Shown here in pieces: positions 38,731 through 48,507 of a stretch of DNA of 64,000 nt; the first letter of the stretch is position 1, and every line of letters starts with the position of its first letter. Below the pieces are notes generated by a model. It searched no databases. It was not told the origin of the DNA and saw only the letters and a list, made by a program, of their open reading frames with translations. The stretch is taken from the NCBI RefSeq assembly GCF_056712565.1, contig NZ_CM160072.1. The stretch is one strand, 5' to 3'. The translations under genes and the position numbers were made by a program.

Positions 38731-39058
38731 GTTCACTGCCGTACAGGCAGCTTAGAAATGACGCCATATGCAGATCATTGAGGCGAAACCGTTCACTGCC
38801 GTACAGGCAGCTTAGAAAACGTTCGCACCGGTCAGGGTACTGCGCAGCGTGTTCACTGCCGTACAGGCAGCTTAGAAAGAAACCAGAGCGCCCGCATAAA
38901 ACAGGCACAAGTTCACTGCCGTACAGGCAGCTTAGAAATGATGGCGCAGCAGTCCTCCCTCCTGCCGCCAGTTCACTGCCGTACAGGCAGCTTAGAAACT
39001 GAACGTTGAAGAGTGCGACCGTCTCTCCTTGTTCACTGCCGTACAGGCAGTATTCACA
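38731..39058 (+). CRISPR. Type I-F CRISPR array 1: 6 repeats (last degenerate), 5 spacers of 32 bp
   Basis: 28 bp repeat GTTCACTGCCGTACAGGCAGCTTAGAAA at 38731, 38791, 38851, 38911, 38971; terminal repeat GTTCACTGCCGTACAGGCAGTATTCACA at 39031. Confidence 0.97.
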
Positions 39059-39230
39059 CTACGATAGTGTTAGACGTTTGGTCGTGCAATGACACTCTCA
39101 ACTTCAAACCATTAGCGTTAGCACGCAATAACAATCGTAATAATTGCGATGGAAATCAATTTTCAGCACATAAATCAATGCTGTACTAAGCCCAATACCT
39201 TCAAATATAAAATAATCACAGGATGTGTTT

Positions 39231-40214
39231 ATGTCTTCGAATTACCTTACGCCTTCCGATCTCAAAACCATTCTCCACTCCAAACGCGCCAATATTTATT
39301 ATCTGGAAAAATGCCGGGTACAGGTGAATGGTGGGCGGGTGGAGTATGTTACCAGCGAAGGTAAAGAGTCGTACTACTGGAATATCCCCATTGCGAATAC
39401 CACGGCGTTGATGCTGGGAATGGGAACTTCCGTTACCCAGGCGGCGATGCGTGAATTTGCTCATGCCGGGGTGATGGTAGGCTTTTGTGGTACGGATGGC
39501 ACGCCGCTGTATTCAGCAAATGAAGTGGATGTTGATGTCTCCTGGCTCAGCCCACAAAGTGAATATCGCCCTACAGAGTATCTCCAGCAGTGGGTTTCTT
39601 TCTGGTTTGTTGAAGACAAACGACTTGCTGCCGCGAAACGTTTTCAGTTAATCCGCCTGACACATATCGATAAGCACTGGTCCAGCTCGAAAATGCTGCG
39701 TGAACACGCATTTCAACCTGATGTTAATGCGCTGCATACCCTCCTGAATCGTACTTGTGAAGAAATAGACGCGGCAGAAAACCATACGCAGCTTATGCTC
39801 GTTGAGGCCAAATTGACTAAAGCGTTATACAAAATGGTCAGTCAAACCGTGGGGTATGGCGATTTCACTCGCGCAAAACGGGGCGGTGGTATCGATATGG
39901 CCAACCGCTTCCTCGATCAAGGGAATTATCTGGCTTATGGACTGGCAGCAGTGGCGGCGTGGGTAACAGGTATCCCGCACGGTTTAGCTGTAATGCATGG
40001 TAAGACACGTCGCGGCGGGCTTGTTTTTGACCTTGCCGATCTGATTAAAGATGCTCTTGTTATGCCGCAAGCATTTATTGCCGCAATGGCGGGAGAAGAT
40101 GCTCAGGAGTTTCGTCAACGCTGTGTTAATATCTTTCAACAAGCGGATGCGCTGGATGTCATGATCACCTCTCTGCAGGAAACGGCCCAGGCACTGGCTA
40201 AGGCTGACCAATGA
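39231..40214 (+). CDS. cas1: CRISPR integrase Cas1 (type I-F)
   Basis: MSSNYLTPSDLKTILHSKRANIYYLEKCRVQVNGGRVEYVT... strongly resembles Pseudomonas/Yersinia I-F Cas1; AGGA ribosome-binding site 8 nt upstream. Confidence 0.93.
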   Translation: MSSNYLTPSDLKTILHSKRANIYYLEKCRVQVNGGRVEYVTSEGKESYYWNIPIANTTALMLGMGTSVTQAAMREFAHAGVMVGFCGTDGTPLYSANEVDVDVSWLSPQSEYRPTEYLQQWVSFWFVEDKRLAAAKRFQLIRLTHIDKHWSSSKMLREHAFQPDVNALHTLLNRTCEEIDAAENHTQLMLVEAKLTKALYKMVSQTVGYGDFTRAKRGGGIDMANRFLDQGNYLAYGLAAVAAWVTGIPHGLAVMHGKTRRGGLVFDLADLIKDALVMPQAFIAAMAGEDAQEFRQRCVNIFQQADALDVMITSLQETAQALAKADQ

Positions 40215-43200
40215 ATGTCCTAATTATCTCACGCTGTACGAAAAATGCTCGCGTGGAAAGCTGCCGTATTATTGATCAGTTTGCCGAACGCACTGGTGAC
40301 GCAGCATGGCAAACGGTGATTACTCTGGAAGGCGTTAATACACTCCGCCGTTTACTGCGCAAAACCGCCAGGCGAAATACCGCAGTGGCTTGTCACTGGC
40401 TGAAGAAGAATGGGCAAACGGAGCTGATGTGGATTGTCGGCAATATTCGTCGCTTTAATGCTCAAGGCCGCGTTCCCACAAATCGAACAACGCAAATCAG
40501 CCTGGTGAACAAAGAAGAAAATCGCTGGCAGTGCGCGGAAAGTATTGCACTGCTGGCGGCTATCGCTGGGCTATTTCATGATTTTGGTAAATCAGGACGC
40601 AGCTTTCAGCAAAGCCTGACTCAAAAGAATACCCGCAGTTATCAACCTTACCGACATGAATGGATTTCACTGCGGCTCTTTCAGACGTTTGTCGGTGAGC
40701 GGCCCGACGATGTGTGGCTGGCGAAGCTTGGCGAACTCACGGCAGATGATGAATCTGCGATTCTTGAGCGCCTGCAAAAAGACACTCCTCAATTTTCAAA
40801 TAGCCCGTTCAGTTCGCTGCAACCATTAGCCAAAACGGTAGGCTGGCTGATCCTTTCCCATCATCGAATGCCGGAGAATCTTTCTCCACAGTCGGAACAA
40901 TCATGTAAAGGGTGTGAAAGTTGGCTGGAGAAGCAACTTAATGCTGACTGGAATGCCGTTAACCACCGCAGAGATGACTGGTCACAACAGGATTTTGCGC
41001 ACGTCTGGCAGTTTCCATCAGGAACGCCGCTTCAAAGCGCGAGCTGGCGGGAAAAAGCGCGTCAGATAGCCCGCCGGGCAAGCAACGCGCTCGGTTTAAA
41101 GACATATGGGCAGATGGAACAGTTGTTCCCCTTACATATGGCGCGTTTTTGTCTGATGCTTGCCGATCATTACTATTCCTCAAGCGATGCGCAGCAAAAA
41201 TGGCAGGACCCGGATTATATCGTCTGGGCAAATAGCGATCGCCAAAGCGGCACGCTCAAACAACGGGTAGACGAACACCTTGTGGGCGTCGCGCATCATG
41301 CGTATCTGCTTGGGCGGCAACTGATGCACACACGGGCATCGCTTCCGGCAATTGCCCGACATAAAGGTTTTAGCCAGCGGGCTACAGATGTGAATTATCG
41401 CTGGCAAGATAAAGCCTGGGATGTGGCGCGAGCGTTACGTGAACGAAGTCGTGAAGAGGGATTTTTCGGCGTCAATATGGCCTCGACGGGGTGTGGTAAA
41501 ACCTTTGCGAACGCCCGCATTATGTATGCACTTGCCGACGAGCGAGAAGGGTGCCGCTTTACCGTTGCGCTGGGATTGCGCACGCTGACTTTACAAACCG
41601 GCGATGCTCTGCGCAGTCGGCTTGGGCTGGGTGAGGATGAGCTGGCGGTACTGATTGGTTCGGCGGCAGTTAATCAACTGTGGCAACAGGAAAAAATAGA
41701 CAATGATTGCGGAAGTGCTTCGCAAGAGTCGCCGGCAGAGGAGCAACAGTTCGTTAAGTACGAAGGCAGCCTGCATACCGGGGCGCTGGAAAAATGGTTG
41801 AAGGATGACAGCAAACTTAAGGAGTTAGTAAGCGCGCCGATTCTGGTCTCGACGATTGATCATCTTATTTCCGCGACCGAGGGCGTGCGAGGCGGGAAAC
41901 AGCTTCCGGCGATGTTGCGCCTGTTAACCAGCGATTTAGTGCTCGACGAACCTGATGACTTTGATATTGCTGATCTTCATGCGGTATGTCGATTGATGAA
42001 CTGGGCCGGGATGCTGGGAACGCGGGTATTACTTTCTTCCGCGACGTTACCGCCAGGTTTGATTCAGGCGCTGTTCGCGGCTTATCTTGCTGGGCGAAAA
42101 ATGTGGCAGGCGTCTTGTGGTATCAACGGCAGGCCTGTCAATATATGCTGCGCCTGGTTTGATGAAAAAGATGCTGATGCCACGCAAATTTACGACGGAC
42201 CTGGGTTTCGTGATGCTCATGCCAAATTTGTTGCACGACGAGCGGTAATGCTGGCTGAAAAAGAACGACTGCATTTCGGGCGTGTAGCTTCGGTTTCATC
42301 AGCATCAGGCGCGATACAAGATGTTACCGAAAGTGTGGCCCAGACGGTGCATACGCAAATGCTGAAGTTGCATCAGGCGCATCGCCAGCGACACGAAAGC
42401 GGTAAAACCGTTTCGCTGGGCCTGGTGCGCTTCGCGAATATCAATCCACTGGTTGCGGTGACCAAAGCCCTGATTGCCATTCCTTCACCAGAAGATGTCT
42501 GCATTCATTACTGTGTTTACCACTCCCGACATCCGCTGGCGGTGCGTTCAGATATTGAGAAGCGACTGGATCGCGCTTTTACTCGTCATAACGAACTCGA
42601 TTTCTGGAACAACGAAGATATCGCAGATGCCTTACATAACCGTCCGGAATCGCACCATCTGTTTGTGGTGTTGGGGACATCGGTTATAGAAGTGGGGCGT
42701 GACTGGGATGCGGACTGGGGAATTATCGAACCAAGCTCCATGCGTTCGATAATTCAATTTGCCGGACGTATTCAGCGCCACCGTAGAAATGTGCCGACCA
42801 GTGAGAATCTGGTTATTTTGCGTAGCAATATCAAATCATTGCAGAAAAAAGCCCCCGCATTTTGTAAGCCTGGTTTCGAAACAAAAGAACACTTGCTGAA
42901 TAGCCACGATATTTGCGAACTGATTCCGATCGCGGACTACCGGACGATTAACGCCTTGCCGCGGATCCTGTCTGCCAATAATGCCAACAAACTGGCGGAG
43001 CTAGAACATAGTCGTTTATCCGCCGAATTGATGAGCAGTAAAAGCAAACATGTGGTGGCGGCGCAATGGTGGCGTGCACCGCTAAGCTGGAACGGCTGGA
43101 TGCAGCGCCAGACGCCATTTCGTTATTCCCCTTTGCCGGAGGCGGTGTTTTTTCTGCATATGGATGATGAAGAAAGCGAAGCGCGTTTCTATTCCCGCAC

Positions 43201-47776: not shown

Positions 47777-47949
47777 AAATTGTTTTGCTGCCAGACCTCA
47801 TAGGTGGCAACGGGGCGCTACTATAGGGAGTTGGAGTGAAACGGTCAAGAAGAATTTATATAGATTGATTTGTTTGGTTACGCAATGAACACGCTGTTCG
47901 CGGGACGGAGATTATGACCGTATGTGTTCTGGTCAATTGTTTATCAAAA

Positions 47950-48118
47950 GCTATGCAGAAAATATGAGATTGAAGAAATACCAAACCGACCCTTTTTCTA
48001 GGTTGTAATGTAACTCATTGATTTTCTTATTGCTATTTTGAAGTCTGGAAAAAGGGTTTGAATCTGCGATTTTGTAAGTTTTAACAGTAAATCAATCGGA
48101 TAGTCTGCTATTATTCCA
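47950..48118 (+). promoter_or_regulatory. Putative leader of CRISPR array 2
   Basis: AT-rich non-coding stretch 5' of the first repeat; polarity set by the degenerate distal repeat. Confidence 0.4.
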
Positions 48119-48507
48119 GTTCACTGCCGTACAGGCAGTTTAGAAATGGATTCCAAACCGCCCACCAACAAAAACAGGTGTTCACTGCCGTACAGGCAGC
48201 TTAGAAAGATACGATCGAATTTAGTCACTGAATACCCCCGTTCACTGCCGTACAGGCAGCTTAGAAAGGGTTGCGCAATGGGCTGGCCGACGAACGCGGG
48301 TTCACTGCCGTACAGGCAGCTTAGAAATGTGGCGCTGATGCGTCTGGGCGTCTTTGTACGTTCACTGCCGTACAGGCAGCTTAGAAAGCGCGCAGTGCCT
48401 GATAATCAATTTTGCTCATGTTCACTGCCGTACAGGCAGCTTAGAAAGAATATTTTGGAAAAATAGCTATCAATCCGGGGTTCACTGCCGTACAGGCAGT
48501 CTTCAAA
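48119..48507 (+). CRISPR. Type I-F CRISPR array 2: 7 repeats (first with one mismatch, last degenerate), 6 spacers
   Basis: Repeats at 48119, 48180, 48240, 48300, 48360, 48420, 48480; first repeat has C to T at position 21; first spacer 33 bp, others 32 bp; terminal repeat GTTCACTGCCGTACAGGCAGTCTTCAAA. Confidence 0.97.

Follow-up and report, generated by a model that had tools for sequence, protein, structure and literature searches.

The type I-F locus between clpA and infA

The DNA analysed here, referred to as the window, is a stretch of 64,000 nucleotides of contig NZ_CM160072.1 (assembly GCF_056712565.1), part of an Escherichia coli chromosome of the sequence type 95 (ST95) type. Between clpA and infA, the window bears a type I-F CRISPR locus, in which the genes cas1-cas2/3-csy1-csy2-csy3-cas6f lie in this order between two arrays (Table 1). 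The placement is the one by which the CRISPR-III locus of E. coli is defined, with its succession of CRISPR4.1, cas-F and CRISPR4.2 (PMC3903273). The Cas1f protein and the Cas2-Cas3 fusion expected of type I-F are both encoded. The full-length set of csy1, csy2, csy3 and cas6f is incomplete, csy2 and cas6f each being interrupted by an in-frame TAG codon. Judged by its genes, the locus belongs to the type I-F family by descent, yet is no complete system.

The stop in csy2 occupies codon 72, which is CAG in intact alleles, and truncates the protein at residue 71 of 307. NCBIfam profiles recover Csy2 in two pieces, covering profile positions 1-65 and 95-295, and the RefSeq annotation of avian pathogenic E. 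coli (APEC) O1 lists csy2 among the pseudogenes on account of an internal stop. The stop in cas6f occupies codon 123, again through a CAG>TAG change (C>T relative to APEC O1), and truncates the product at residue 122 of 184, leaving profile positions 1-123 of 184. The interrupted cas6f allele is common to 11 complete genomes, and 318 contigs carry a call of the 122-aa product. Once glutamine is put back in place of the two stops, Csy2 and Cas6f align end to end with the solved structures of the two proteins. The restored sequences exist as real alleles, Q72 Csy2 being found on 808 contigs and Cas6f on at least 1,000. An initial annotation made from the letters of the window alone had described the Cascade effector as apparently disabled, and the two nonsense codons, together with the RefSeq pseudogene call, bear this out.

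The whole locus of 10,041 bp is found with 100% identity in four complete genomes (Z0117EC0054, APEC E18055, AH21G053 and AH19D088) and lies one to three bases away from APEC O1, S88, ATCC 11775 and other members of the lineage, which takes in ST95 isolates studied by Stephens et al. 2017, SF-468 among them. The csy3-cas6f segment is present in about 238 of the 5,426 complete E. coli genomes searched. Across 10 kb, only two positions set the window apart from APEC O1; one gives the cas6f stop, and the other, 48139, has a C>T change. The latter alters the first repeat of array 2, which reads GTTCACTGCCGTACAGGCAGTTTAGAAA; the changed position is the first base of the 8-nt 5' handle on the would-be CRISPR RNA (crRNA) of spacer S6 and is specific to the sub-lineage, as is the cas6f stop. 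The chromosomes of AH21G053 and AH19D088 match the window with 100% identity both at the I-F locus and at the junction of a P2-like prophage described below, and from this identity we take the strain of the window to be probably AH21G053/AH19D088-like.

Repeats and spacers

The window contains 13 copies of a 20-nt core repeat, GTTCACTGCCGTACAGGCAG, always on the plus strand, six of them in array 1 and seven in array 2. The full repeat is 28 nt long, and the spacers measure 32 nt in ten cases and 33 nt in S6. In 12 of the 13 repeats, the gathering score of the Rfam family CRISPR-DR4 (the I-F/Ypest family repeat) is reached on the plus strand, which means that the spacer strings as listed are in crRNA sense. 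The repeat core CTGCCGTACAGGCAG folds into a perfect 5-bp stem with a 5-nt loop, the hairpin expected for Cas6f, and RefSeq annotates both arrays of APEC O1 as CRISPR. The locus is a genuine CRISPR and no chance repeat.

All eleven spacers listed in the initial annotation are in the window, identical letter for letter, and the range 38759-48479 given there starts where S1 starts and finishes where S11 finishes. The leader of array 1 probably lies in the AT-rich stretch at about 38600-38730. With a leader to the left of each array, spacer age runs from S1 (newest) to S5 (oldest) in array 1 and from S6 (newest) to S11 (oldest) in array 2. Two metagenome contigs (at 1662-2170 and 6174-6440), along with some genomes matched by the I-F locus, hold variants of array 1, one with three additional spacers between S3 and S4 and another without S3. 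The lineage thus has array 1 in several states that differ by deletion or insertion, and the window shows one of them. The only hits of an Rfam run at the gathering threshold over 38500-48700 were the 12 CRISPR-DR4 repeats, with no transfer RNA (tRNA) reported at the position of serW (47689-47776).

Table 1. Features of the I-F locus and its flanks, in window coordinates
Feature	Coordinates	Strand	Remarks
clpA	ends at 38518		left flank of the locus
CRISPR array 1 (CRISPR4.1)	38731..39058	+	6 repeats, 5 spacers; terminal repeat degenerate (GTTCACTGCCGTACAGGCAGTATTCACA)
S1	38759..38790	+	leader-proximal, newest in array 1; matches CRISPR arrays only
S2	38819..38850	+	icd prophage, DUF968/Ref-like nuclease gene
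S3	38879..38910	+	matches CRISPR arrays only
S4	38939..38970	+	plasmid leading region, between antirestriction gene and ssb
S5	38999..39030	+	oldest in array 1; leading-region antirestriction gene
cas1f	39231..40214	+	intact; TIGR03637, 549.9 bits, 1-307 of 307; RefSeq
cas2-cas3 fusion (cas3f)	40211..43444	+	intact, 1077 aa; TIGR02562, 1208.6 bits, 1-1110 of 1110
csy1 (cas8f)	43774..45081	+	intact, full-length profile cover
csy2 (cas5f)	45078..46001	+	pseudogene, in-frame TAG at 45291-45293
csy3 (cas7f)	46012..47013	+	intact, full-length profile cover
cas6f (csy4)	47024..47578	+	in-frame TAG at 47390-47392
serW, tRNA-Ser(GGA)	47689..47776	-	ARAGORN and RefSeq; landmark between cas6f and array 2, outside the system
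CRISPR array 2 (CRISPR4.2)	48119..48507	+	7 repeats, 6 spacers; terminal repeat degenerate
S6	48147..48179	+	newest in array 2, 33 nt; matches CRISPR arrays only
S7	48208..48239	+	icd prophage, start of DUF968 gene
S8	48268..48299	+	icd prophage, DNA methyltransferase gene
S9	48328..48359	+	IncFIB replication initiator gene (RepB family)
S10	48388..48419	+	ea22-like gene of lambdoid prophages
S11	48448..48479	+	oldest in array 2; common to many other I-F arrays; CRISPR matches only
infA	48620-48838		right flank of the locus

Plasmid and phage targets of seven spacers

The initial annotation regarded all eleven spacers as being of unknown target. Seven can now be assigned: S4, S5 and S9 match plasmids, and S2, S7, S8 and S10 match temperate phages. 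The GG protospacer adjacent motif (PAM) that the annotation had suggested looking for is present as well, in the form of 5'-CC on the crRNA-sense strand (GG on the target strand), beside five of the seven protospacers (S2, S4, S8, S9 and S10; P = 1.8e-5). The two remaining protospacers are those of S5, flanked by CT, and S7, with CCA immediately before the protospacer and GG at its 3' side.

In a PLSDB search with all spacers concatenated, S4, S5 or S9 find matches in at least 5,000 plasmids. Many of these matches are perfect; 32/32 identity is seen for S4, S5 and S9, mostly in conjugative plasmids of Escherichia, Klebsiella, Salmonella and Shigella. The targets of S4 and S5 are located in the leading region of F-like and I-complex plasmids, in or beside the antirestriction gene, between a DNA methylase gene and ssb/psiB. 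The S5 protospacer corresponds to codons 9-19 of the antirestriction gene and is found with 32/32 identity in plasmid F (56779-56810). Every 5' flank of S5 that was read shows CT instead of a PAM, and no PAM lies within slipping distance. A CC beside the S5 protospacer is found in none of the best 5,000 PLSDB plasmids, the 12 matches listed all standing at 46/47 and none at 100%; the databases as they stand thus offer no obvious canonical-PAM source for S5. S4 matches an unannotated stretch just downstream of the antirestriction gene and before ssb, with 32/32 identity in many plasmids. The single flank read for S4, that of plasmid pSFE059 (one mismatch), bears a 5'-CC PAM, and the S4 and S5 sites of this plasmid are 403 bp apart on the same strand. 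The S9 protospacer lies inside the IncFIB initiator gene next to a 5'-CC PAM and was matched at 2,957 plasmid places and in 2,968 of the 5,426 complete E. coli genomes. The match records of S9 comprise 1,906 with one mismatch against 1,176 that are perfect.

Three of the phage-matching spacers have their protospacers on one and the same IMG/VR contig, all inside 932 bp. S7 matches it at 32/32 on the opposite strand, and its flanks, described above, are consistent with slipped or flipped acquisition. S2 and S8 match with two mismatches each (positions 20 and 26 in S2, positions 3 and 15 in S8), both beside a 5'-CC PAM. The contig represents a temperate phage integrated beside icd, and the arrangement of the three protospacers is found in 11 independent assemblies or contigs (the IMG/VR contig and ten more). 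The chromosomal flank of this prophage shows 99.8% identity to E. coli. The co-clustering is expected by chance at a rate of about 1e-11. Three spacers drawn from only 932 bp of one phage, with S7 and S8 as neighbours in array 2, would be the footprint of primed adaptation. A search of species-representative genomes gave no match to S7. S10 has its best match, 31/32 with a mismatch at position 6, in an IMG/VR contig, where the protospacer has a 5'-CC PAM and covers the start codon of an ea22-like open reading frame. Its matches extend to 281 INPHARED phage records and 172 phage-plasmid-like PLSDB records, with 87-96% aligned identity and one to four mismatches. In two sequenced records with flanks read, S10 shows three mismatches and no PAM.

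The icd prophage has a peculiar distribution. A 4.4-kb segment of it (contig positions 8900-13300), encoding DUF968, RusA, the methyltransferase and an antiterminator, has no homologue in the 5,426 complete E. coli genomes. The segment is matched in 207 of these genomes, and all 15 matches listed fall in annotated CRISPR arrays; arrays of non-ST95 strains match other positions of the segment (query 2806-2842 and 3775-3815). Among draft assemblies and read sets, the prophage occurs often, with about 210 index blocks. Heavy targeting by CRISPR here goes together with absence from finished genomes.

For S1, S3, S6 and S11, no protospacer was found in INPHARED phages, PLSDB plasmids, the 5,426 E. 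coli genomes or IMG/VR, where they match CRISPR arrays only. The same holds for S1 in metagenomes, and nothing was found for S6 in species-representative genomes. The remainder of the icd prophage, which extends from the integrase to the tail fibres, gives these four spacers no alignment with fewer than 11 mismatches.

Matches within the host cell

Plasmids matched by spacers of their own host are found in five strains: AH21G053, AH19D088, APEC E18055, UTI89 and PA45B. The S9 site has its CC in all five. It is perfect (32/32) in pUTI89, where it falls in IncFIB repA, and in the 5-kb repA region read from pPA45B. On the 154-kb ColV IncFIA/FIB/FII plasmid of AH21G053, the plasmid of AH19D088 (first 50 kb read) and the ColV plasmid of APEC E18055, it matches at 31/32 with the mismatch at position 25. 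S5 is matched at 32/32 in AH21G053, 31/32 in pUTI89 and 29/32 in AH19D088, each time with a CT flank, and has no match on the E18055 plasmid. In that plasmid, pEND_Eco18055, both the S4 and the S5 protospacers are absent and the S9 site alone is kept. An IS1 follows soon after ssb in its leading region (196.4-198.3 kb), which has no annotation of the antirestriction gene. The first 50 kb of pZ0117ECO054-1, which carry resistance genes and an IncQ-type repC, contain no protospacer.

The initial annotation, whose proposal did not include a resident plasmid among the possible self-targets, had left self-targeting open and singled out the chromosome and the resident P2-like prophage. Self-targeting does exist, on a resident IncF virulence plasmid matched by S5 and S9, and not on the chromosome or the prophage. 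The P2-like prophage itself is real: positions 1 to about 1350 of the window are the right end of a 34-kb element, with the C-terminal part of gpD at 61-978 and ogr at 1036-1287. The element sits between rcdA and ybjL and is present in AH21G053, AH19D088, SF-468 and others; APEC E18055 is without it, and the window aligns there only from position 1353 on. As a target of the spacers the prophage is ruled out, the best alignment over all 34 kb of its AH21G053 copy having at least 9 mismatches in 32, which is chance level. The window itself holds no spacer match with 8 or fewer mismatches.

Chromosomal targets are likewise ruled out for the matching genomes, at about three or fewer mismatches. 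In the chromosomes of AH21G053, AH19D088, Z0117EC0054 and E18055, spacers S4, S5, S9 and S10 are found at the two array places only. The other seven spacers hit 303 places in 172 of the 5,426 E. coli genomes, in chromosomes only and none on plasmids. Among 60 sampled rows of these places, 59 are annotated as CRISPR, and the remaining one holds array-2 spacers in an unannotated stretch. In APEC O1, PMV-1, ST95-32, ExPEC XM and others, S4, S5 or S10 find three to four chromosomal places at about four mismatches; the additional places are probably weak S10-like sites in lambdoid prophages.

Proposed origin of the spacers and tolerance of the plasmid

We consider it highly probable that the two arrays are the real immune memory of a type I-F system disabled by two stops, and that the resident plasmid is matched by two of the host's own spacers. 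During a working phase, Cas1 and Cas2/3 would have taken 32-nt pieces beside a CC/GG PAM from elements entering E. coli, namely the leading region of plasmids (S4, S5), the IncFIB replication gene (S9), the icd phage (S2, S7, S8) and the ea22-like gene of lambdoid phages (S10). The clustering of S2, S7 and S8 would have arisen from primed acquisition. The CAG>TAG change in csy2 truncates Csy2 (Cas5f), and a second one, confined to the sub-lineage, Cas6f, which would leave the interference arm dead. With both proteins truncated, crRNAs would stay unprocessed and no Csy complex would form, both steps being, as far as the reading frames tell, impossible. Dead interference would in turn allow the IncF ColV virulence plasmid to be stably kept despite two matching spacers, and keeping the plasmid may have selected for the loss of function or permitted it.

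More tentatively, the csy2 stop may have opened the way for the ST95 lineage to gain, in a stable manner, IncFIB virulence plasmids of the pUTI89 and ColV types, which would otherwise have been destroyed via S9. The cas6f stop, the repeat change and spacer losses would represent stepwise decay since then. We regard this order of events as possible rather than probable. If it holds, a loss of immunity driven by plasmids would have reached fixation in a pathogen lineage of pandemic spread, and the phylogeny of this lineage could serve to date it. As a side possibility, the intact Cas1 and Cas2/3 may still be adding spacers.

Several points weigh against this account of a dead system tolerating its target. 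Either the plasmid or the stop codon may have come first. Four spacers (S1, S3, S6 and S11) are without an assigned target. The AH21G053 plasmid presents no textbook target, S5 lacking a PAM and S9 being mismatched at position 25, so its tolerance might not strictly need a dead effector. The co-occurrence of the array with an S9-matching plasmid is given by record and genome counts as an upper bound only, at most 116 of about 149 array-bearing genomes. The resident plasmid is that of AH21G053 and AH19D088, whose equivalence to the strain of the window we infer from identity of sequence, and the loss of function, too, would follow from the sequence of the two genes.

In a rival account, the I-F system is still functional, through readthrough of the stops or a copy in trans, and the plasmid survives by way of escape variants. 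The ColV plasmids of AH21G053, AH19D088 and APEC E18055 always carry the same single mismatch to S9, the flank of S5 is CT, one-mismatch records of S9 outnumber the perfect ones, and CC-flanked S5 sites are missing among the best 5,000 PLSDB plasmids, all as escape would have it. However, Csy2 has lost three quarters of its length and Cas6f a third to nonsense codons that are independent of each other, and a single mismatch outside the seed normally leaves interference by type I systems in place. Besides, pUTI89 and pPA45B hold the perfect S9 site with its CC in hosts with the same array, and UTI89 has the csy2 TAG (PMC3784566). The few places per genome found with the I-F locus as query suggest that there is no second cas set, a point on which no dedicated check was made. 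Escape from a working system appears improbable on this evidence.

Two further explanations are less probable still. The one put forward in the initial annotation, that with Cascade off the targets of the spacers lie in the chromosome of the host or in its P2-like prophage, has in its favour the prophage end in the window and the effector, which is indeed disabled. It is contradicted by the failure of any spacer to match the window at up to 8 mismatches or the AH21G053 prophage at fewer than 9, by the CRISPR annotation of nearly all sampled chromosomal hits, and by the confinement of S4, S5, S9 and S10 to the array places in the four matching chromosomes, and we give it very little weight. It seems equally implausible that the spacers with plasmid matches persist because they serve some purpose other than immunity, for example a crRNA against repA that regulates replication or copy number. 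The position of S9 inside the IncFIB initiator gene and its conservation across the lineage would suit such a role, but there would be no crRNA or surveillance complex without Cas6f and Csy2. The arrays vary by spacer loss and the locus gathers more damage, as is expected of neutral decay, and nothing in the data points to regulation.

Relation to known systems

The phenomenon as such is already known. Jiang et al. 2013 (PLoS Genet; PMC3784566, Fig. S3A) presented UTI89 as a natural case of CRISPR inactivation, in which an I-F spacer matches the resident pUTI89 and csy2 carries TAG in place of the CAG of LF82, ED1a and NRG857c. The window belongs to the same lineage and shares the clpA-infA locus, the csy2 CAG>TAG change and a spacer against a resident conjugative plasmid. 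The inactivating lesion that marks this class is present here as two nonsense codons. The window differs from UTI89 in the extra cas6f stop and the altered first repeat of array 2, and its probable plasmid is of the ColV-type IncFIA/FIB/FII kind, matched by S9 with one mismatch and by S5 perfectly. The UTI89 paper names one spacer, whereas seven targets are assigned here.

The E. coli CRISPR-III locus with its two CRISPR4 arrays, each with its own leader, was described by Almendros et al. 2014 (mBio; PMC3903273). LF82, ED1a and NRG857c resemble the window in the clpA-infA position, the two CRISPR4 arrays, the six cas-F genes and the 28-nt repeat; unlike the double nonsense mutant of the window, they keep CAG at csy2 codon 72 and are reported to be active.

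According to surveys, IncF plasmids are matched by E. coli spacers of type I-E as well as type I-F. Plasmid leading regions are reportedly a preferential target of CRISPR spacers, an observation ascribed to Westra et al. (RNA Biol, 2013); S4 and S5, in the region that enters the recipient first, are one more example of this and show no real difference. Primed adaptation and the PAM rules of type I-F are known from Pectobacterium atrosepticum and Pseudomonas aeruginosa. The window resembles the systems of these species in its 32-nt spacers, the CC/GG PAM at five of seven protospacers, the clustered targets and the slipped or flipped S7, and differs in presenting the footprint only and in having S5 without a PAM in slipping distance.

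To the published UTI89 case, the present analysis makes minor additions: the cas6f stop of a sub-lineage, shared by 11 complete genomes, the seven target assignments and the clustered phage hits. A further addition is the exclusion of chromosomal and P2-prophage self-targets. Its value is that of a question resolved and not of a discovery.

The locus is a clean natural case of the cost of CRISPR immunity, in which a spacer is directed at the gene by which a useful virulence plasmid replicates, the plasmid is kept and the effector is inactivated by nonsense codons. Stephens et al. 2017 (PMC5381267) found the CRISPR3/4 spacers of ST95 to be unrelated to plasmids or resistance, which is what a dead system would give, and the lesions described here help to explain why spacer content fails to predict plasmid or resistance carriage in ST95. 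They also serve as a warning that counting E. coli strains as type I-F positive by the presence of cas genes overstates working immunity.

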